Shown here in pieces: positions 14,356 through 39,212 of a DNA stretch of 64,000 nucleotides (position 1 is the stretch's first letter; the number at the start of each line of letters is the position of its first letter). The position numbers and the translations under genes are program-made. The stretch is taken from positions 1,696,001 through 1,760,000 of the forward strand of contig CH464491.1 of NCBI GenBank assembly GCA_000002445.1, written 5' to 3'. This DNA is from Trypanosoma brucei. Its lineage: Eukaryota. A model generated the notes under the pieces. That model saw only the letters and a list, made by a program, of their open reading frames with translations. It was not told the DNA's origin and made no database searches.

Positions 14356-16452
14356 TTAAGCTTTACCTGCGTTCGCCAGCGACTCCCTAGTAGATTCATA
14401 GAGCTTCATGACAAGACCAATAGCAATGGTCTTACCGTCTTCACGCAACATGAAACGACCCATTTTGTCAAAATCCTTGTGGGGCTCGAGCACGAGCGCG
14501 CGCTCCAACTCCATTCGAGCGATCACAACATCTCCAGCCTTCACGTGTGTGGGGTCCTTCTGCACAACCTCACCCGTTTTTTTATCCACTTTAGCCAGAA
14601 GTTTGTGGAAAGAAACCTCCTCCTGTGCCGCGTGAGCGTGCAACATGACACGCGATCCAGCACATATAATATTTTTCACGTCCAGTATCACCACACGGGC
14701 CTGGAAGTACTCAACAGCGCGAAGTGACGTCGGAACCGATGTACCCACGTAGCCAGCGTGAACGTCGCCTTCATCCACGCCGCGAACGCGAAGGTGGACG
14801 TTGTCTCCGGGATAACATTTCTCAAACTCTGTCGCCTCAATTGAAATGCCTTCAACAACCGCCTCCTGTTTGCTTGGAAGTATCTGAATCTTTTCCCCAA
14901 CAGCCACGGAGCCAGACTCTACCTTGCCATACACAAAAACGCGACCCTCATCCTTGTATGACCCAACAAGTGGAATACAAAGGACATCGTTTTCGCTTTT
15001 CGTCTCTGGTAAAACAAGCTCGTCGATGAAGCTCATCATTGTTGGTCCTTTGTACCACGGACAGACGCCTTCTGCTGTTTCGCGGATGAGATTGTCACCC
15101 GTAAGGCCAGCAATCGGAATAAATATGAGGTTTTTGGCCTTCTCTTCATCATAACCGTTCTGACGAAGGAAGGGTTTTAGCTTCCCCAGTATGGCATCGT
15201 AACGCTCCTTGCTCCAGTTGACCTCGTCCATTTTGTTGATAACACAGATCATTTGCTTCACGCCACACGTACGGACAAGCATAGCATGTTCGCGGGTCTG
15301 GCCACCTTTCTCAAAACCTGTCTCGAACTCACCAGTACGACTGGAGATGACCAGCACACACACATCTGCCTGGGTTGCACCTCCAATCATTGACGGTACA
15401 AACGCTTTGTGGCCGGGGGCATCGAGAACCGTTATCCGGCGCTTCTCTGTTTCAACATACGCAGCTCCGGTTTCACGCGTGATTCCTTTCGTTCGCTCAT
15501 CTTCCGAAACGTCCATCACATACGCGTACTCCCAACCTTCACGGTGGTGCACCTCCGCCTCACGCCGCAGTTTCTCCATTTCACGCTGGTCCACCAGCCC
15601 CTTCTCCATCAAAAGATGTCCAGAGATGGTCGATTTACCCGCGTCCACGTGACCACAGAAAACAATGTTGAAGTGTGGACGAGGGTCCCTAACAAATTCC
15701 TTTTTATTTTGCTCACGTTGCTTGGCAATCTCGCAACGCACTTGCTCACGAAGTTCCTCCGGGGTCAGCTTCGCAGAACCCTTCTTGTCGTCAGCCGTTG
15801 TCGTGGTTGTGTTTCCGGCGTTATCCTTCGGTTGGCTATCGCTCTTTGCGTTGCCCTCTTTGGGTTTGGTTTCTTCTACCTTCTTCTTACTGAGAGAAAG
15901 AGTACCTGCCTTTGCCTTCTTGGCCGGTGGAACAAACTCGGAGGCACCGCCACCCAGAGACAGCTTTGATGTCTGGGCGGAAGAGGTCTTCGGTTGCTCT
16001 TCCGGCTCGACCTGTTGAGGGGGATTAACATAACCTTGAGTGGGAGCGCCTCCCTGCCCAGTACCTTGGCCTGCGCGGTCGTATTGTTGTGATTGGAACC
16101 GCTGTTGATTATGCACTGCGTTGTAACCGCCTCGTTGCTGGTTGTATACCGGAGTATAACCGCCCTGTTGACCGCCATAACCTTGATTATACCCTCCCAT
16201 CTGATGATTGTAACCAGGGACGTATCCGCCCTGTTGTTGGTATGAAGGATTGTAGCCACCTTGTTGACTGACAAAAGCCGGGTTGTACACCGCTTGCTGC
16301 TGTTGTTGATAAGGCGACTGGTAGTAGTAACCCTGCTGTGGCGCACCACCGGCGTGTCCCTGGTGCTGCTGTGGGTATTGACCCTGTGGGTGTGACGGTG
16401 TGAAGGCGTTCGCGTTGGGGTTAAACCCCCCTGGTTGTGCCCAACCTGACAT
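14356..16452 (-). CDS. ERF3: Eukaryotic peptide-chain release factor 3 (eRF3/Sup35-like translational GTPase), 698 aa, with an N-terminal Q/N/Y/G-rich low-complexity domain.
   Basis: C-terminal EF1A-like GTPase with G1 FCGHVDAGKST, G3 DAPGH and G4 NKMD. The N-terminal roughly 165 residues are prion-like GGY/QQ repeats. The overall architecture matches eRF3 rather than EF1A or Hbs1. Confidence 0.85.
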   Translation of the reverse strand: MSGWAQPGGFNPNANAFTPSHPQGQYPQQHQGHAGGAPQQGYYYQSPYQQQQQAVYNPAFVSQQGGYNPSYQQQGGYVPGYNHQMGGYNQGYGGQQGGYTPVYNQQRGGYNAVHNQQRFQSQQYDRAGQGTGQGGAPTQGYVNPPQQVEPEEQPKTSSAQTSKLSLGGGASEFVPPAKKAKAGTLSLSKKKVEETKPKEGNAKSDSQPKDNAGNTTTTTADDKKGSAKLTPEELREQVRCEIAKQREQNKKEFVRDPRPHFNIVFCGHVDAGKSTISGHLLMEKGLVDQREMEKLRREAEVHHREGWEYAYVMDVSEDERTKGITRETGAAYVETEKRRITVLDAPGHKAFVPSMIGGATQADVCVLVISSRTGEFETGFEKGGQTREHAMLVRTCGVKQMICVINKMDEVNWSKERYDAILGKLKPFLRQNGYDEEKAKNLIFIPIAGLTGDNLIRETAEGVCPWYKGPTMMSFIDELVLPETKSENDVLCIPLVGSYKDEGRVFVYGKVESGSVAVGEKIQILPSKQEAVVEGISIEATEFEKCYPGDNVHLRVRGVDEGDVHAGYVGTSVPTSLRAVEYFQARVVILDVKNIICAGSRVMLHAHAAQEEVSFHKLLAKVDKKTGEVVQKDPTHVKAGDVVIARMELERALVLEPHKDFDKMGRFMLREDGKTIAIGLVMKLYESTRESLANAGKA

Positions 16453-17379
16453 CTCCTTTTAAACTTGCGCTCGAAAAATAAGACTTTCTACAAAAAAAAA
16501 ATGAAATAAAGTTGAACTGACCGTTGGGCACTTCAGTATCTAAAATTTTGTTTGAGGTACGTAAGTAGTCAACGCCATATTACCACACCCACGGAACCTA
16601 ACCAAGCGTGTTTTATAGTGCAGTTAAGGGCATTTCCCACCATCGCTCAGTCTCCCCCAGAACCGGCTTTTTCGCCCTAAATCACACCAATCAAAAAATG
16701 AAGGGGCGTAAGAGGGAAGAGCTACAAAAATTTAACCCAACGGGAAGCACACACACTTTCATACACGGAAGCTGGTAAGAAAAGCGGCGATAATTATTTG
16801 GAAAGAAAACAGAACGTAAAGTGGCAAAGAGCAGAGCATGCTTCAAACGTATACTCATTGGGGTCATTTATGCGAGGGTGGTGAGCGCACCCCTTTCAGG
16901 CCCGTTTTCATTCACAGTAGTGTGTTCTTCAGCACAAACAACAATGCCAAGAGGTTGAAAACGGACGAGGCATGCGTGAAAATTCAAGTATTTAATATGT
17001 CATCATTCTCCCATCGAATGCGCATATATATATATATACGTCTCACAGTAACCTGGTTCAAATACAACGGTGAGTACAAAACAAAAACTGGGGAAGCTCT
17101 TCAGTGTCTAACCACAGTTATTAGATGTCGTTCGTAACAACGGTACACGTCCCTCTTCTCATCCTCCTTAAACCATATTAGCACGTGAGTGGAAAGTAAC
17201 ACCTCAAGAGAAGTGGTGGTCGATGGAGAGCCGGATTTGTGGTTCGTCCTTCAAGTACAGACACGTCCGTACAAATATATGCAACCCGGCGACAAACAAA
17301 CACCGCACAGGTGCAAAGGCACACAAACATGTTTTCCTTTGAGTGCCATGTGTGCCTGCTCGTGAGCGAGCCACGCCTT

Positions 17380-20300
17380 CTACTGCAGAAACTTGAGGTT
17401 ATTAATATGTTGAATTGCCGAAAAGTGCTTAGTGGCGAGCTCTTTCCACATTTCCCTTGAGCGTTGTGATCCTAAACAATTGATATACTCCGATAGAAGA
17501 CCAACCACATCTGGGGGTAAAGAACCTGTCTGCAAGGCTTGGAATAGCTCCATAGCTGCCTTTGCTATGGCTGAACGGCGTTGGGCGTTTGCTACCTGCT
17601 GAATGGTCGTGCGCAACTTCTGCGCTAAGTCCCGATGTTCTGGGTTCAGCGACGAAATTTCAAACGACGACAAACCAAAATCATCCGCCGGTCGACCACC
17701 TGCGGCTGCAAACCGAGGTGGGGCGCCAGGGTTCGCGACCGGAGCGTACGCCACGCCGCCTACCCGTGGAGCTGTCACCACAGGGGGTGCGGTACCAACT
17801 GCAGTGGAAGGAATCCCGGGGGGAGGAGGAGCAACAGAACTGGGCGCTGTCATCGATGCTGCCTGAGGGGGTTGGTTTGTCACACTCTGGGGGTTCATGT
17901 TCCAGTTGGCATTTGAGCCGTCACTGGGCATACGTGGTGGTGGAAGCCCACCCGAGGTCATCGACGGTGGTGCCGACCCTGGTGGTGCCACCATCATATT
18001 CCCAACCCGCGGAGCTGACGGCTCCGGCGACGGGGAACTTTTACCCGTCCGATGCAAACTTCCTGTTGGAGGTGCACCAAAAGTCGATGTCGGGTTGGTG
18101 TCTAATCCTGATGGCGCCCTAGGAGGTAGAGGCATTCCACGTGGACCTGACGGTGGCTGCGCAGGAGTAGGAAATTGCTGAGGTGGTGCTAAAGGAGTTC
18201 CGATGACCTGCTGCGACGGCAGTGATGGAACGACCGTCGGTTGTGCTGGCGCGTGGAGCCCTTGTACAGATGTTACTGACGACCCACATGACGGCGGGGG
18301 TATCATTGGCATAGAACGTTGGGGATCCATATGGTTCGGCGGGCGTGGGGGGGCGGAAGTGGGAACCGGACCTTGCAATTCCTGACTCGGCAGATTTTGA
18401 GGAGGAGCACCACAGTAACCGCTCATCGTCGCAGTGGCAGGGGGGTGGTTTGTTACCACACCTCCTCCAACAGACCCCAAAGAAGACCAGGAAGAAATGG
18501 GATGAGGCATCAGTCTGGGTACCGGTGCAGCGGAGTTCGCCGTTACCGCCGGTCCCGGTTGTTGGGCGATGATCCCTGGTGCCGGCGCCTGTTGCTGCTG
18601 CCCACCGTACATATTGGGTTGCACAGCTGATGGAGGTTGTTGCTGCTGCCCACCGTACATATTGGGTTGCACAGCTGATGGAGGTTGTTGCTGCTGCTGT
18701 TGTTGTGTCGGTGGCGGCATCGTGGCTCCCATACGTTGCTGCTGGTACTGGGGTTGCACAACTGATGGAGGTTGTTGCTGCTGCCCACCGTACATATTGG
18801 GTTGCACAGCTGATGGAGGCTGTTGCTGCTGCTGTTGTTGTGTCGGTGGCGGCATCGTGGCTCCCATACGTTGCTGCTGGTACTGGGGTTGCACAGCTGA
18901 TGGAGGTTGTTGCTGCTGCTGTTGTTGCTGCCCGTTACCCTTGTTAGCCAAAAACTCCAAGCACGACTGACTTAGTGAATCCGAAAGAGGAGTCGCAACA
19001 AACGGGAAGGTGATCTGTCCACACGGAACTTCGAACCTCATCCGGTCTACCATAATTGCGGCGTTGCGATTGCCGACGTTAGCGGACCGCTGAAAAATTG
19101 GCATCGCCTTCGTAAGCAACCCCTTCCCCAACAACCCCAGCCCATATTCATACAAGTAATCCCCAAAGAACGTTGATGTAACCTTCCGCCCCGTCACTTC
19201 CTCAAGAAGAAGTACCTCCTGCACCAGCTTCTCTACAGGCATATTTTCCTCGTGCCACAGTTCCGCAACTGCATCCACATTTCCACTGCAAATAAAACAG
19301 GTCATAGCACTCTCCCTGTTACCCGCTTCCTTGAGGGCAAGTGCCAACTTGTCGCAAGCCTCCGAAAATCTTTCCCCTACAAATGATATTATAACGGAAA
19401 GAGCCTCCTTCCACAACGCGTTCCCACCGACCATCAACGAGCGAAAATCTCCTGCGGCGACTGCAGACGCATACACGATATGCCGTTTCCCCTGAGAATT
19501 CATTAAAATATGCCTGGTATATTCCTGCTGCACTCGCTGCATCAGCTTCCCTCCTTGCAAATAGGCAATAGCAAAGGCATCACCAAACTCGCATTCGTCC
19601 AAACATGCCTCAACCGCCTCATTGATGCGGCCTGCTGCTACATGTGAAGCAGCAATATCTTCTAATGATTTTTGTGTGCCCTGCATCGTCTCAAATGGGT
19701 CCTCCGTGTCCTCAGTTGGTGCGTCCTCGGCGAGGTAGGAAAGGATGGGGGTACGATCGTTTTTGCACGCTGCTGCAGCGGCCAAAAGTGGATATTGGTG
19801 CGCCTTTAGCCACTCTACACGCTCCACAGAGGCGGGTGGTAGTCGAGAAATCTCAGCGACAGGATCCCCACCGCTCATCCCTGACGGATCGGATGCGTTG
19901 TTTGTGACGATACGTGTAAGTCTGACAGCGTTTGCGGAGTGAGAAGACACCGACGCTACGAGCCCACTTATGCCAATAGAAGCCCCACATGGGCGCTGCA
20001 AAGACTTTTGTACCGATGCACCAGGGGCAGGGGCAGAAGACACATCCTCAGCCGTTGATACACAAAACAACGGCTCAAAGGATGACGTCGCCAGGACCAC
20101 CGGAAGTGCTCGAGACCACTTCATGTCAACCATATAGCCGTTTTGCTGTTGCAGTGCGCCATTCCGCTCTCCAGTCGAGGGGTCCCACCATAGTGTCTTC
20201 CCGTCCGCATCACATGACGCGAGAATCGCGTGGTCTGTCATATTCCACGCAAGTCCAGTTACAGCATTCTCGTGACCCAGCATCTCGCGAAGAGGCATCA

Positions 20301-21075
20301 TTGCTTTTTTTAAATCCCAAATTTGTATGGCAGGATGTTTTTCGTCGAGTCCGACAGCAATTTGAGTCGCCATAGATGGATGCCAAGCAATAATGTTTCC
20401 AGATGATCCCGATTTCCCACTCTTGGATACATGCAGCGACACTGCTAGGGTCTGTGTCTTCAGGTTCCACACATTGACAACGCCGTTAGCAACGGAAGTG
20501 GCTAAAATGTGAGGCCACTTCGGGTTCCACTGAAGGTGTGTAATGCCAGCCGGTTGAGCAGAGTCAGGCATAATAGGAACACGCTGCGGCTCTCGTGGGT
20601 TTTCCAACATCCATACATCCCATGCCCCGTCGTCGCCACCGATAGCAAGAAATGTGGGTTGGGACGGGTTGAATTGGCAACCACGGACGGCGCCGCGGTG
20701 CTCAGCAATAACAGAAAGTCGTGGTTCTTCCGTGTTACGGTCAGGATTGATTCCATAGTTTTTCATCATGATAGACGCATCGTACACGTACACGGCTCCA
20801 TCTTCACAAGAAACAGCAATGATGCCTCGTTCCCCGCCGTGTGGACTCCAGTCAACACGGAGAGCGTGTGCCGGAATCACCGTACGACCCAAAACGGGCA
20901 TCTCTGTCTCATCCGTCTGCGTGACATCAACCAACCGTATCTCGAGAAAGGCCTCACCAGAAAAGTTGTCATCAATTGCTCCGGCAACGGACGCCGCGGC
21001 GAGAAACGTTGGTGTTCCCAGAACCTCCGGTGCCCACGCAAAAACGCAGGTCAGGGGTGTGGCCTTTAAGCGCAT
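17380..21075 (-). CDS. SEC31: SEC31-like COPII outer-coat protein, 1231 aa: N-terminal WD40 beta-propeller, central P/Q-rich repeat region, C-terminal alpha-helical region.
   Basis: The N-terminal roughly 330 aa contain WD40 signatures (for example VNVWNLK and IQIWDLK). The long proline/glutamine-rich linker with near-perfect internal repeats and the conserved C-terminal helical region are typical of Sec31. Real ATG at 21075. Confidence 0.7.
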   Translation of the reverse strand: MRLKATPLTCVFAWAPEVLGTPTFLAAASVAGAIDDNFSGEAFLEIRLVDVTQTDETEMPVLGRTVIPAHALRVDWSPHGGERGIIAVSCEDGAVYVYDASIMMKNYGINPDRNTEEPRLSVIAEHRGAVRGCQFNPSQPTFLAIGGDDGAWDVWMLENPREPQRVPIMPDSAQPAGITHLQWNPKWPHILATSVANGVVNVWNLKTQTLAVSLHVSKSGKSGSSGNIIAWHPSMATQIAVGLDEKHPAIQIWDLKKAMMPLREMLGHENAVTGLAWNMTDHAILASCDADGKTLWWDPSTGERNGALQQQNGYMVDMKWSRALPVVLATSSFEPLFCVSTAEDVSSAPAPGASVQKSLQRPCGASIGISGLVASVSSHSANAVRLTRIVTNNASDPSGMSGGDPVAEISRLPPASVERVEWLKAHQYPLLAAAAACKNDRTPILSYLAEDAPTEDTEDPFETMQGTQKSLEDIAASHVAAGRINEAVEACLDECEFGDAFAIAYLQGGKLMQRVQQEYTRHILMNSQGKRHIVYASAVAAGDFRSLMVGGNALWKEALSVIISFVGERFSEACDKLALALKEAGNRESAMTCFICSGNVDAVAELWHEENMPVEKLVQEVLLLEEVTGRKVTSTFFGDYLYEYGLGLLGKGLLTKAMPIFQRSANVGNRNAAIMVDRMRFEVPCGQITFPFVATPLSDSLSQSCLEFLANKGNGQQQQQQQQPPSAVQPQYQQQRMGATMPPPTQQQQQQQPPSAVQPNMYGGQQQQPPSVVQPQYQQQRMGATMPPPTQQQQQQQPPSAVQPNMYGGQQQQPPSAVQPNMYGGQQQQAPAPGIIAQQPGPAVTANSAAPVPRLMPHPISSWSSLGSVGGGVVTNHPPATATMSGYCGAPPQNLPSQELQGPVPTSAPPRPPNHMDPQRSMPMIPPPSCGSSVTSVQGLHAPAQPTVVPSLPSQQVIGTPLAPPQQFPTPAQPPSGPRGMPLPPRAPSGLDTNPTSTFGAPPTGSLHRTGKSSPSPEPSAPRVGNMMVAPPGSAPPSMTSGGLPPPRMPSDGSNANWNMNPQSVTNQPPQAASMTAPSSVAPPPPGIPSTAVGTAPPVVTAPRVGGVAYAPVANPGAPPRFAAAGGRPADDFGLSSFEISSLNPEHRDLAQKLRTTIQQVANAQRRSAIAKAAMELFQALQTGSLPPDVVGLLSEYINCLGSQRSREMWKELATKHFSAIQHINNLKFLQ
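18590..18940. repeat. In-frame tandem DNA repeats inside the SEC31 coding sequence. Sub-units of about 42 bp and about 95 bp encode QQQQQQPPSAVQPNMYGG / QQRMGATMPPPTQQ peptide repeats.
   Basis: The 42-mer ctgcccaccgtacatattgggttgcacagctgatggaggttg appears at about 18600, 18641 and 18782. The longer unit tgttgtgtcggtggcggcatcgtggctcccatacgttgctgctggtactggggttgcaca appears at about 18700 and 18833. Confidence 0.85.
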
Positions 21076-29003: not shown

Positions 29004-30740
29004 CTAAAGTCGCTCTAGTTCCTTTGCCGCCGCCGCTGGCAGCACATTTCCCTGCCGTGGTTGCGACACTTGCCGCTTGCTCATGATGTACTCGTACGTT
29101 GTCATGTTGGCGCGGTTCAGCATGATATGGAAGCCTAACAAGTGTATCAAAGGGACACATGTTAGGAGGACAAGCGCACAGAACAGAAGAGGTCCGGCGC
29201 GAAAGTACACGGAATACGGCAGCAGACGGTTCCACCACTTCGCTAAAAACACAACAGCGGCTATCAGCCCTAGCACCATGCTACACAGAGCTGATGTAAC
29301 AAATGCTATGAATAACCGATAATTTTTCGAACCTATGCACATGTTAAGCCACTTGCAGTGGTGGTCAAACCCCTCAATGCATTTATTACACGCCTTGCAA
29401 TGTCGGGAATCGAGCAGCGTCCGTCGTTCACAAAACGAGCAGGGCTCACCCTCGTCATTTATATCCCCATTCTCTCTAAACGCAATGACCAACATCAGAC
29501 CAGATGTACACACAATGGAAGTGAGAACGAGCGTGCTGGACACAATTACCTCCCACAAACACTCCGAGCACCCCTCATCGCGGTACAACAGAACATAACC
29601 AGGAACCACTGAGCTCACAAAAAGGGCAGTGAAAGTTACTATCGTGCAAATCGCCATAATCTGCAGCGAATGCAGTGGCCACTGAAAAGCATGACGCCGT
29701 GGTTTATTGTATCGCCAGCTATCGGGGTTGGAGCGATCGACGCAGCACGAAGCGCATGGCGGGTGATTCCGAACTCTATCAGCAGGGGAATCGGAACAGA
29801 GACTATTAACGTCTCGTGACGCACGCAAAGCACCATCAGAAGGTGTCTGGTTGGGGTTTGACCATTGTGGGACCGCGATGCCATCGACACTGCACCCAGC
29901 GTGAGACTCACTACTACCATCACTGCTGTTGGTTGTGGTTTCTGAGTAACCACGATCACTGGTATTGATCTTTTGGGAAGAAAATGCACCATGCTGAGCA
30001 TTTAATTGGTTGTTCATAAAGGTGACCTCGCCATGATTTCGTCTATCCGACCCTCCAGGTGGTCGTACTACGCTATGTTGTTCACAGAAACTGGACACCG
30101 TGCTCCCTTTCATCCGGTCATTTGGCGGCCACGCAAGTTGAAGAGGACCCTCAATAGGTGGCAGCGGAGCTGGCACTACGGAGGCCATAGAGGACGGAAA
30201 GGTTCGTCCCGTATCCCTATCAGATCCCAACTCAGTGGCACGCGAGTGGTGTGAAGAAGGGGAGAGTCCACCTTTACGACCTCCCCGCGCCTTGTGGGAG
30301 GATATGCGATGATTTAAAGGGGAGAGGGCCGCTTCCTCCGCTGCACTATTTGCCTTCTCCGTCCCCCTTGCCAGCGGTGAATCGAGAGCACTGAGTTTCG
30401 TTGGGCCTTCGTTCTCGCCGGCGTCCCTCATGCGTGCAGTAATCTTCGCCCACGCATTTGCCTCGTCCTCTGCGGTACGCGATGCACAGGCCCCCTCCTG
30501 AGTGGTCTCAGGGTTCCTTGCGCCGCAAGTCGGCGAGCAACCTTCATCATATGATGACTCTTCTATGCACTGCCCCATCGCAGCGCCAGCACTATTACGG
30601 TTATTCCTGCTAACATCCCCCCGATGGCCACTTGAAGTTAAGGGGGGTCCCACCGTGTCAGCAGCACCGCTGACATCACTAGTGGATGATTGTGAACGGC
30701 GATGCCTCCGATTTCTCCGATGACCCTCCCGCGTTGGCAT
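29004..30740 (-). CDS. DHHC-type zinc-finger protein S-acyltransferase (palmitoyltransferase), 578 aa, with a long hydrophilic S/R/G-rich N-terminal region.
   Basis: Has the DHHC-CRD motif CSFCERRTLLDSRHCKACNKCIEGFDHHCKWLNMCIGSKNYRLF flanked by four predicted transmembrane segments. Real ATG at 30740. Confidence 0.85.
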   Translation of the reverse strand: MPTREGHRRNRRHRRSQSSTSDVSGAADTVGPPLTSSGHRGDVSRNNRNSAGAAMGQCIEESSYDEGCSPTCGARNPETTQEGACASRTAEDEANAWAKITARMRDAGENEGPTKLSALDSPLARGTEKANSAAEEAALSPLNHRISSHKARGGRKGGLSPSSHHSRATELGSDRDTGRTFPSSMASVVPAPLPPIEGPLQLAWPPNDRMKGSTVSSFCEQHSVVRPPGGSDRRNHGEVTFMNNQLNAQHGAFSSQKINTSDRGYSETTTNSSDGSSESHAGCSVDGIAVPQWSNPNQTPSDGALRASRDVNSLCSDSPADRVRNHPPCASCCVDRSNPDSWRYNKPRRHAFQWPLHSLQIMAICTIVTFTALFVSSVVPGYVLLYRDEGCSECLWEVIVSSTLVLTSIVCTSGLMLVIAFRENGDINDEGEPCSFCERRTLLDSRHCKACNKCIEGFDHHCKWLNMCIGSKNYRLFIAFVTSALCSMVLGLIAAVVFLAKWWNRLLPYSVYFRAGPLLFCALVLLTCVPLIHLLGFHIMLNRANMTTYEYIMSKRQVSQPRQGNVLPAAAAKELERL

Positions 30741-37475: not shown

Positions 37476-39212
37476 TCAACAGCACCTTACTTCTTTTTTC
37501 CCTTGAGGAGGGCGCGCTTGCCGAGTATCCTCACGGGCAAACTGTACACTGACGAATTTTCGTAGCACCGGTTGCTGGCGCAGCCACCGCAGGCACTGAA
37601 GGGCGTCCACGGGCCGATCGAAGCGTACAAAAGCGCTCCACCGCGAAAATCCCACGTACGAACGGAAGCCGGCGAACCGCTCCGAATAAAAGTCTTGGCT
37701 CAATATCATTGACATCAGAGTTTCGGCGTTGTCACCATCCGGTACACGAGAAGCACTCGTGGAAACAGTGGTCGCAGTCGTTGAGGCCGTTGCGACTTCT
37801 TCATCCGGTGATGTGGCTGTGGAGCCGACTTGGTTGTTTGGTGACTCAGGTGAACTGGGTTCAGGTGGGTACGCCGGTTGAGGTGACGCGCGGTGACGAT
37901 GGTGGAACTGCGACCACCATTCATACAGAAGCTCCAGAGGATGCGGCTCCCTCCTCTCATCACACTGCCGTGCGTATGCAGACAACCTCCCTCCTCTCCC
38001 AGTCAGTGAGGGTGAGGGTGGGCCCAACGAGGTGGTGGGGGACAAACAATGCGGTGGTCCAGAAGATGTGCCACAAGGCTGCGAGTCGTTCCCAGATGAG
38101 GACCCACCCCGGGCACCCGTAACCCTGACGAACAGTGTGCTGCTGGGCAGCAACTCATCTTTAATCAAGGTCGGTGTAGCAACAAGCCCAGAAGAGCTGC
38201 CTGGCATGAGTTTCTCATCCTGAAGAGTCGCGCGGACGTCATATGGTGGGGTGCCCCTCTCCCAGTCACCTCGGCTCGGAAGGGGAACCTCATGCACGCG
38301 ATGTGAAGGAATTTGTGAAACCCCACCTCGTGCAGCTTCCGCGGCACTAAACAAGCACTCGAGGTTTCCACCAGCACCGCCACAATGAGTGCTGGGGACA
38401 CCATAACACTGTGAGAGATGGTGATGCGTGTAAACGGGTGCTCGCGGTACTGTGGAATGGTTCGATTTGCCGGTGGGAGGACCGGCACCACGTGAACCCG
38501 GTGGTGGAGGTCCTAACTGTGGTTGCCACCCTACAGTCCCTGTTGGTACGAGGTGAAGGGCAGCAGCGGGATCAGTGTTGCCGCTCGTGCTGTGGGGCGC
38601 CACCAAATAATTCGGAGGGTGAACTGACGGCGGCGGGGAAAGGTACTTTGGCCGGCACGCGGGGCTGCTCAGGGACCATTCCGCAATAAGAATCACGCTG
38701 TTAAGCAATAACTCAGTGGATCGAACGGGATCGGCCTCACAACAATTATACTCCTCATATGGAACGGGGTAGCGGAATCGAGACTGTGTTGGCGCCCACG
38801 TGGATGAGCTAACCTTTGAGCAGTCATACGCAATTTGGGCTGTTACAGCCACCTTTTGAAACCACCTCAACGCACGCAAAGCAAAGTCACCAGTCTCGTA
38901 TTCAGCGAAACCGACATCCCGACCCCCACTACGTTTCACACGCAGCTCAATAAGCCCCTCCCCCGGTACATATGGCAGTAGACGCAACCCGTTGTCAATA
39001 GTCAGTGGTAAATTTGTGATAAATATTGTACGCCTGAGAGGAGGTCGGTGCTCCCGCGATGGGGTTGGTGGCATGTGTCTTGAATACTCCTGACAGTGGC
39101 CCGGACACGGAGGCCCATGTGGCAACGGAGGCCCCTCGGGTGCTGCCATTCCAACCTGTTGGTGGGAGGGCAACTGGCCAGCCCCATAGTAGTGGTACAA
39201 CCTCGGACGCAT
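37476..39212 (-). CDS. Proline-rich RNA-binding protein of 578 aa with two RRM-like domains, one N-terminal and one C-terminal.
   Basis: N-terminal RNP-like segment RTIFITNLPLTIDNGLRLLPYVPGEGLIELRVKRSGGRDVGFAEYETGDFALRALRWFQ. C-terminal segment RFAGFRSYVGFSRWSAFVRFDRPVDALQCLRWL. The central region is P/G/S-rich. Real ATG at 39212. Confidence 0.55.
   Translation of the reverse strand: MRPRLYHYYGAGQLPSHQQVGMAAPEGPPLPHGPPCPGHCQEYSRHMPPTPSREHRPPLRRTIFITNLPLTIDNGLRLLPYVPGEGLIELRVKRSGGRDVGFAEYETGDFALRALRWFQKVAVTAQIAYDCSKVSSSTWAPTQSRFRYPVPYEEYNCCEADPVRSTELLLNSVILIAEWSLSSPACRPKYLSPPPSVHPPNYLVAPHSTSGNTDPAAALHLVPTGTVGWQPQLGPPPPGSRGAGPPTGKSNHSTVPRAPVYTHHHLSQCYGVPSTHCGGAGGNLECLFSAAEAARGGVSQIPSHRVHEVPLPSRGDWERGTPPYDVRATLQDEKLMPGSSSGLVATPTLIKDELLPSSTLFVRVTGARGGSSSGNDSQPCGTSSGPPHCLSPTTSLGPPSPSLTGRGGRLSAYARQCDERREPHPLELLYEWWSQFHHRHRASPQPAYPPEPSSPESPNNQVGSTATSPDEEVATASTTATTVSTSASRVPDGDNAETLMSMILSQDFYSERFAGFRSYVGFSRWSAFVRFDRPVDALQCLRWLRQQPVLRKFVSVQFAREDTRQARPPQGKKEVRCC

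Follow-up and report, generated by a model that had tools for sequence, protein, structure and literature searches.

What the long N-terminal extension of a translation termination factor does is the question raised by the locus considered here, which lies in a window of 64,000 nucleotides from Trypanosoma brucei (the whole stretch of DNA that was analysed, positions 1,696,001 to 1,760,000 of contig CH464491.1, assembly GCA_000002445.1). The minus strand of this window holds, at 14356..16452, the complete coding sequence of eukaryotic release factor 3 (eRF3; 698 amino acids plus stop), as indicated by the open reading frame (ORF), its Pfam domains and 100% identity to an annotated protein. An earlier reading of the same DNA, referred to below as the sequence-only reading, had described the beginning of this protein as a domain reminiscent of the prion-forming domain of yeast Sup35, and had proposed in it two PAM2 motifs, the type of peptide bound by the MLLE domain of the poly(A)-binding protein (PABP).

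The analysis favours a predicted disordered extension in which one PAM2 motif, a low-complexity region suited to reversible association and a conserved basic block (the LSLG block) precede the core of the protein; taken as a whole, this reading is considered fairly probable. All coordinates are those of the window, and all the eRF3 elements described lie on its minus strand.

A candidate PAM2 motif at the N-terminus

Alignment, Pfam and profile comparisons define a conserved N-terminal peptide, MSGWAQPGGFNPNANAFTPS (residues 1-20, 16393..16452), made up of a tryptophan, W4, followed by the PAM2-type sequence FNPNANAFTP. This decapeptide (motif 1, residues 10-19, 16396..16425) fits the pattern hydrophobic-N-x-x-A-x-x-F-x-P at every specified position, and the related pattern [LFMIV]NxxAxx[FYW]xP appears in 0.09% (9e-4) of shuffles of the 260 N-terminal residues of eRF3. 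Its conservation was measured in an alignment of 35 eRF3 sequences from Euglenozoa and relatives, counting in each column the sequences without a gap. Position 17 is aromatic in 31/31 sequences (tyrosine in 17, phenylalanine in 9 and tryptophan in 5), P19 is kept in 30/31, A14 in 26/31 and N11 in 26/30, and the upstream W4 is found in 31/33.

Nearly all the euglenozoan eRF3s recovered show the pattern [LFMIV]NxxAxx[FYW]xP at residues 9-17, with variants such as FNPNANAFVP, FNPNANAYNP, FNSNAPSYTP, VNPNAPSFTP and FNPNAAGWTP, and MNPGAANWQP in Euglena. The strict consensus was matched by T. brucei, T. congolense, T. vivax, T. cruzi, T. rangeli, T. melophagium, Leishmania and Leptomonas, and by bodonid-like and euglenid sequences. 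Outside the Euglenozoa, comparable peptides are found near the N-terminus of eRF3 in basidiomycetes (LNPGAFEFVP), chytrids (FNLGAAEFVP), the red alga Galdieria (MNPQAKEFVP) and vertebrates (LNVNAKPFVP). The sequence-only reading had made its claim depend on the conservation of FNPNANAFTP in kinetoplastid orthologues; the motif is conserved in these and in wider euglenozoan orthologues and fits the consensus, and the claim is not refuted on this count.

Two profile searches point in the same direction. PAM2 (PF07145) is the sole Pfam family matching the motif 1 peptide, with 16.6 bits and E=0.0064. Moreover, when a custom profile built from 33 non-euglenozoan eRF3 motifs was run against all 920 six-frame ORFs of the window, the top match was eRF3 residues 8-20 (13.3 bits, E=0.004). 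Motif 1, well supported by its conservation, is probably the orthologous PAM2 of eRF3 and probably binds trypanosome PABP. The MLLE domains of T. cruzi PABP1 and PABP2 have been shown to bind the PAM2-bearing eIF4E3 in vitro (PMC11754739). No mention of PAM2 in trypanosomatid eRF3 was found in the literature searched, and the assignment, a modest new point, appears not to have been pointed out before.

The proposed second PAM2 motif

The second PAM2 motif of the sequence-only reading, GGASEFVPPA, corresponds to eRF3 residues 168-177 (15922..15951), below the interval given there, whose lower limit was 15957. According to alignment, Pfam and profile, the relevant peptide (motif 2) is LGGGASEFVP (residues 166-175, 15928..15957), the spacer between two copies of the LSLG motif, and it too lies almost entirely beyond that interval. 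Its L, A, E, F and P agree with the PAM2 consensus and are correctly spaced; the asparagine is missing.

Could T. brucei eRF3 then carry two functional PAM2 sites, the second being a weaker MLLE contact after the manner of PAM2-N and PAM2-C in human eRF3a? The five matched residues speak for it, and the pattern [LFMIV]xxxAxEFxP occurs in only 0.016% of shuffles, a figure to be read with the post hoc choice of the pattern in mind. Motif 2 also ranks second in the window with the eRF3-PAM2 profile, AEFVP is found in T. vivax as well, and human PAM2-C too lacks one consensus residue (PMC2854688). However, the profile match is not significant (5.8 bits, E=1.1) and covers the C-terminal half only, Pfam PAM2 matched the copy of neither T. 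brucei nor T. vivax, and asparagine is absent.

In the alignment column of the motif 2 phenylalanine (residue 173), Phe is found in 3/35 sequences and Pro, the majority residue, in 14/35. T. brucei and T. vivax alone keep phenylalanine; serine takes its place in the sister species T. congolense and in L. infantum, and proline in T. cruzi, T. rangeli, T. melophagium and several Leishmaniinae. Furthermore, the conserved surroundings, K-L-S-L-G-G-G...P-K-K...G-T-L-S-L-G-K-K-K, define a different motif, present in fungi too, and motif 2 is therefore taken as a variant of its spacer. A second functional site is unlikely on this evidence, the claim of a second PAM2 is not supported, and EFVP is best regarded, from the alignment, as a lineage-specific (salivarian) variation of the LSLG-block spacer.

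The low-complexity region

An AlphaFold2 (AF2) model of full-length eRF3, obtained with a 35-sequence alignment, assigns residues 1-226 a predicted local distance difference test (pLDDT) score below 50, without secondary structure; values are 30-37 across residues 21-145 and about 34 at motif 1. When solved structures were searched with the sequence of residues 1-253, nothing was found, even at E=10. The extension is predicted to be intrinsically disordered, with short linear motifs separated by low-complexity sequence. Intramolecular docking of the LSLG block or of PAM2 on the eRF3 core was also considered and is unsupported, the pLDDT staying below 50 up to residue 226.

Composition, PAPA and the AF2 model delimit, next to motif 1, a low-complexity ('prion-like') region at residues 21-145 (16018..16392), consisting of Q 25.6%, G 20.0%, Y 13.6%, P 8.8% and N 6.4%. 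Within it, the spacing of GGY reveals five imperfect repeats of 10-11 residues, GGY-x-[PQA]-x-[YH]-x-[QHG]-Q-x (residues 65-118, 16099..16260). The GGY triplets stand at residues 65, 75, 86, 97 and 108 (P=6e-5, composition-preserving shuffles of residues 21-145). Tandem Repeats Finder, run on 15700..16500 with a minimum score of 30, found no tandem repeat in the DNA, and the repeats thus exist only at the protein level; glutamine codons are mixed (CAA 18, CAG 15), without any single-codon run.

All the strings quoted in the sequence-only reading are present on the minus strand in the 698-residue ORF, that running from GGY to GGYN being residues 65-111 (16120..16260). The repeats are real, but they had been extended over some 165 residues, while they span only about 54; the compositional bias covers residues 21-145, and residues 146-165 contain no repeats. 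Likewise, of the Q/N/Y/G richness proposed, that in Q, G and Y was confirmed; N reaches only 6.4%, and the region is thus Q/G/Y/P-rich and not Q/N-rich.

As regards prion propensity, the values come from a re-implementation of PAPA and are approximate, that of the yeast Sup35 comparison sequence included (threshold 0.05). The maximum for T. brucei eRF3 is 0.122, at residue 58, against 0.10 for Sup35 in the same implementation. Orthologues give 0.117 in T. melophagium, 0.059 in T. cruzi, about 0.05 in Leishmania, 0.033 in T. rangeli, 0.011 in T. congolense and -0.023 in T. vivax, a scatter around the threshold which indicates that prion propensity as such is not conserved. The classical criterion for prion domains is at least 30 Q+N in an 80-residue window; T. 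brucei eRF3 fails it marginally, with a maximum of 29 at residue 44, and Sup35 reaches 38. The close orthologues T. congolense and T. vivax are below the PAPA threshold. In yeast prion domains, moreover, sequences rich in Q, poor in N and containing proline are poor amyloid prions. The likeness to the Sup35 N-domain proposed earlier holds for composition, for oligopeptide repeats and for the PAPA score; the term 'prion-forming' was an overstatement, given that Q/N count, the scarcity of asparagine, the 9% of proline and the low scores of close orthologues.

The Q/G/Y/P bias is retained in the orthologues. Their repeat units differ completely from one species to another: there are four near-perfect GGQQGGYYPSYQQQGGGY units in T. 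melophagium and three units of a different kind in T. cruzi, and the region of T. vivax is shorter. What is conserved is composition and disorder, not a specific amyloid-forming sequence. Among the eRF3 copies of T. b. brucei/T. equiperdum, T. b. equiperdum and T. b. gambiense, repeat number is constant, the GTPase core shows no differences, and the substitutions are restricted to residues 55, 102, 112 and 225 (~16288..16290, 16147..16149, 16117..16119 and 15778..15780), all in the disordered N/M region.

This prion-like composition is already published for kinetoplastid eRF3 and is not new. In 2008, Gln/Gly/Asn/Tyr repeats were described in L. major and T. cruzi eRF3 by Atkinson et al. (PMC2613156), who considered homology with the fungal repeats unlikely and reported no evidence of prionogenicity; in 2025, a prion-like eRF3 N-terminus was found with PLAAC in all kinetoplastids (mBio, PMC12153298).

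The same data allow another explanation, namely that the Q/G/Y-rich stretch serves as a flexible spacer without functional consequence and owes its composition to replication slippage and mutational drift, with selection acting only on the flanking motifs. Neither its sequence nor its repeat unit is conserved even within Trypanosoma, and the subspecies differences all fall in the N/M region, as would be expected of such a spacer. On the other hand, a content of Q+G+Y of at least 60% over 60 residues recurs in the same place, with the sequence itself completely turned over, in most euglenozoan and many fungal eRF3s. Tyrosine enrichment is also atypical of slippage, and T. brucei shows neither a tandem repeat at the DNA level nor a single-codon run. 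Neutrality is accordingly regarded as rather improbable.

The LSLG block and the order of elements in other eukaryotes

Alignment shows that a basic block, KLSLGGGASEFVPPAKKAKAGTLSLSKKK (residues 163-191, 15880..15966), is conserved between the low-complexity region and the charged linker. It contains two copies of K-x-[LIV]-S-[LIV]-[GS], which in T. brucei read KLSLGG and GTLSLSKKK; its AF2 pLDDT is below 50 and it is undocked. The conserved columns in the 35-sequence alignment are K163, L164, L166, G167-169, K178, K179, L185, S186, L187 and K189-191. The motif is not restricted to Euglenozoa: in the N/M regions of 58 non-euglenozoan eRF3s, [LIVMF]-[ST]-[LIVMF]-[GS], usually preceded by Lys, was observed 62 times against 3.6 expected, in forms such as AKVLSLG, AKAVSISIGG and SKSISLGS, often in 2-5 copies and in tandem. 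We know of no described function for this motif. It is also seen in P0085, P0104, P0109, P0111, P0065 and further eRF3 matches, which include fungi, euglenids and other protists.

The tryptophan preceding PAM2 is similarly widespread. In the N-termini of 72 eRF3 matches, an upstream Trp (W4, 16441..16443, in T. brucei) is found in 44/72 against 10.8 expected. Euglenozoa have it within MSWQQP or MSGW, fungi and vertebrates within SWE[DE], and Gonapodya within MSGWNPNYNPNAHEFVP. Conservation so far beyond the kinetoplastids suggests that the PAM2 of eRF3 belongs to an extended N-terminal motif.

With low complexity defined as at least 60% Q/N/G/Y in a 60-residue window, the order PAM2, low-complexity region, LSLG, G domain was found in 36/37 of the eRF3s having all three features, including 15 fungal or euglenid ones. 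The relatives came from a word-seeded search with the full-length query, which may enrich for similar N-domains, and the prevalence of the layout cannot be read from these counts. The same order is common to Euglenozoa (Discoba) and to chytrid and ascomycete fungi, and this shared architecture is a modest new point. As far as such comparisons go, the layout may be ancestral rather than convergent, contrary to the view of 2008 (PMC2613156). A more ambitious version can be put forward only tentatively, and is considered somewhat improbable: an ancestral eukaryotic eRF3 would have had a Ser-Trp element, PAM2, a Q/G/Y-rich region, one to five K-x-[LIV]-S-[LIV]-G copies, a charged linker and the GTPase, the 'prion domain' of Sup35 would derive from an old condensate or low-complexity module, and LSLG would be an undescribed pan-eukaryotic motif of eRF3. 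The main texts of PMC2613156 and PMC12153298, as far as they were searched, contain neither the term PAM2 nor a note of the LSLG block or of the shared motif order.

Function of the extension

The mechanism that is thought most likely can be outlined as follows. Motif 1 would dock into the MLLE (PABC) domain of trypanosome PABP1 and/or PABP2, a contact that would link the ribosome at termination with the poly(A) tail, in the way known for the human eRF3a PAM2 motifs. Residues 21-145 would act as a flexible, multivalent 'sticker-spacer' segment, probably promoting weak, reversible self-association or partitioning into ribonucleoprotein condensates, comparable to the non-prion, stress-responsive behaviour reported for Sup35; a heritable amyloid prion is less likely for these residues than reversible association. 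The separately conserved basic LSLG block (residues 163-191) would serve a putative partner, and the charged linker and the helix at residues 231-248 lead into the GTPase core.

Several points weigh against this interpretation. The score of motif 1 with Pfam PAM2 lies below the gathering cut-off of 20 bits (the human eRF3a control gives 39.7), and Pfam PAM2 gave no match on the Tyr/Trp variants of T. cruzi, Leishmania (L. infantum) and a bodonid-like sequence. The glutamate that is important in the PAM2 of Leishmania eIF4E4 is alanine in T. brucei eRF3. In several trypanosomatid-like assemblies (P0010, P0023, P0027, P0028 and P0029) motif 1 is not recognisable, and it is therefore dispensable in some lineages. 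No PABP pull-down, BioID or stress-granule data naming trypanosomatid eRF3 were found in the literature searched, and the suggested condensate behaviour is deduced from composition alone. Finally, eRF3 is missing, in the parts consulted, from the PAM2 proteins that an HMMER survey listed for T. cruzi (PMC11754739); the failure of Pfam to detect Tyr/Trp variants may explain this absence. eRF3 is likewise not mentioned in the available main texts of PMC6075789, PMC8575317, PMC4652759, PMC11556693 and PMC7682498, and the portion searched of the supplement to PMC6075789 has only eRF1 among its entries.

As a separate observation, the assemblies without recognisable motif 1 (loci L001-L003; Logan runs SRR22803254, SRR22803263 and SRR22803264) keep MSWQ and the rest of eRF3 despite the loss of PAM2, and in P0027 and P0028 the first LSLG copy is also missing.

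Some of these points could also be understood if motif 1 were a conserved signal for a partner other than PABP, its likeness to PAM2 being coincidental. The sub-threshold Pfam score, the Tyr or Trp found in place of Phe in most orthologues and the additional invariant W4, which falls outside the definition of PAM2, all agree with this idea. A PAM2 variant with Trp for Phe, that of LARP4, nevertheless binds MLLE, and intermediate forms bridge the groups, such as those of Gonapodya and Galdieria cited above. Furthermore, animal eRF3 has an experimentally proven PAM2 at the same position (PMC2854688). A non-PABP partner is accordingly judged quite improbable. Least of all can a true prion of the Sup35 type be expected, in which self-propagating amyloid would sequester eRF3 and heritably raise stop-codon readthrough: the approximate PAPA value exceeds both threshold and Sup35, GGY/QQ repeats recall PQGGYQQYN of Sup35, the region is disordered in the AF2 model and PLAAC is positive (PMC12153298), but the Asn and Pro contents, the 29 Q/N per 80 and the scattered orthologue scores, the re-implemented PAPA code and the lack of evidence of prionogenicity in PMC2613156 make this explanation very improbable.

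Preferring, therefore, the PAM2-bearing, reversibly associating extension, several consequences can be considered. If motif 1 binds PABP, trypanosomes would link termination with the poly(A) tail by the PAM2-MLLE contact that animals use, and eRF3 would be a competitor of eIF4E3, eIF4E4 and further PAM2 proteins for the MLLE pocket. These organisms have two PABPs and several cap-binding factors with PAM2, and their control of gene expression is almost purely post-transcriptional. The hypothesis can be tested cheaply, and in an essential factor of the parasite. The prion-like region, already in the literature, opens no new question. The motif order shared by Discoba and Fungi argues against the published view of unrelated kinetoplastid and fungal repeats, and draws attention to the uncharacterised, conserved LSLG motif.

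The gene and its surroundings

The product of 14356..16452 is, as the sequence-only reading had recognised, eRF3, the canonical T. brucei termination GTPase, encoded by an ordinary, already annotated gene. It is 100% identical to XP_828690.1/Q385F3 of T. brucei brucei TREU927 and to a T. equiperdum protein, annotated as 'eukaryotic release factor 3, putative'. Pfam finds PF00009 at residues 259-456 (151.5 bits, E=2.6e-44), PF03144 at 507-569 and PF03143/PF22594 at 578-684, all exceeding their own cut-offs and corresponding to a GTPase domain and EF-Tu-type beta-barrel domains 2 and 3. Together these form the core that binds eRF1 and the ribosome (residues 259-684, 14401..15678), modelled by AF2 with pLDDT mostly above 85. 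Among solved structures, mammalian eRF3a ranks first (E=2e-124), followed by S. pombe eRF3 (2e-113), Hbs1L (1e-98) and EF1A (3e-94), so that eRF3 is the nearer relative and the paralogues Hbs1 and eEF1A are more distant.

Between the LSLG block and the core, a charged linker rich in Lys, Glu and Thr, defined by composition (residues 192-230, 15763..15879; AF2 pLDDT below 50 to residue 226), is the equivalent of the 'M' region; residues 146-255 contain K 16.4% and E 11.8%. It is followed by a conserved helix, TPEELREQVRCEIAKQREQN (residues 231-248, 15709..15762; AF2 pLDDT about 80-84), which leads into the G domain and is conserved in trypanosomatids as K-M-T-P-E-E-L-R-E-x-V-K-K-E-I-A-R-Q-R. 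The helix is amphipathic and confidently predicted just ahead of the G domain; it may match the N-terminal extension in contact with the core in the crystal structure of S. pombe eRF3.

Ahead of the start ATG (16452..16450) stand a T-run and an AG, the arrangement expected of a trans-splice acceptor region. All window ORFs of at least 250 amino acids lie on the minus strand, a pattern typical of polycistronic units in trypanosomes, and plus-strand ORFs over the eRF3 region were rejected as antisense artefacts of its reading frame. An Rfam scan of the whole window found no family. Downstream of eRF3 lies an Oxa1-like neighbour, a synteny kept in other trypanosomatid contigs. The upstream neighbour (17380..21075, minus strand) encodes a Sec31-like protein of 1231 amino acids with a WD40 propeller and a Sec16/Sec31-type tetratricopeptide repeat (TPR) region; it has a Q/P-rich region of its own, encoded by a 135-bp unit present in 2.3 copies with 98% identity (18616..18919; QQQQQQPPSAVQPNMYGG... 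and QPQYQQQRMGATMPPPT...). Elsewhere in the window, two ORFs of 578 amino acids lie 8.5 kb apart on the minus strand, a DHHC palmitoyltransferase (29004..30740) and an ORF without Pfam match (37476..39212); since the second has no match, their equal length seems coincidental rather than the result of duplication.

Comparison with known systems

One of the closest published descriptions is that of kinetoplastid eRF3's own prion-like N-terminus (PMC12153298, PMC2613156), which concerns the same domain of the same family and notes its Q/N/G/Y-rich repeats; the focus of PMC12153298 is, however, an acidic insert specific to Blastocrithidia and absent from T. brucei eRF3. With the N/M regions of Sup35, T. 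brucei eRF3 shares a disordered Q/G/Y-rich N-domain with GGY/QQ repeats, a subsequent Lys/Glu-rich middle region and a similar PAPA score. It differs in being Asn-poor (6% in residues 21-145 against ~14% in Sup35 N/M) and richer in Pro, in its repeats, of 10-11 residues and another consensus, and in its Q/N maximum (29 against 38 per 80 residues), prion formation by the T. brucei domain being at most putative.

For motif 1 itself, a near parallel is the PAM2 of Leishmania eIF4E4, MNPNATEFMP, which has been crystallised on the PABC domain of PABP1 (PMC6379680). It is identical to FNPNANAFTP at 6/10 positions (N, P, N, A, F and P), with a hydrophobic residue in first place as well; unlike motif 1, it belongs to a cap-binding factor, and the Glu before its Phe, which aids affinity, is Ala in eRF3. 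Human eRF3a (GSPT1) belongs to the same family as the T. brucei protein and also has a disordered N-terminal extension before the GTPase; it binds the MLLE domain of PABPC1 through a pair of PAM2 motifs (PMC2854688). Its LNVNAKPFVPN aligns with FNPNANAFTP, sharing the hydrophobic residue, Asn, Ala, the aromatic residue and Pro. The human factor has the overlapping PAM2-N/PAM2-C pair and lacks a long Q/G/Y-rich region, whereas in T. brucei such a region succeeds the motif and there is one convincing copy, at residues 10-19, as a candidate MLLE binder.

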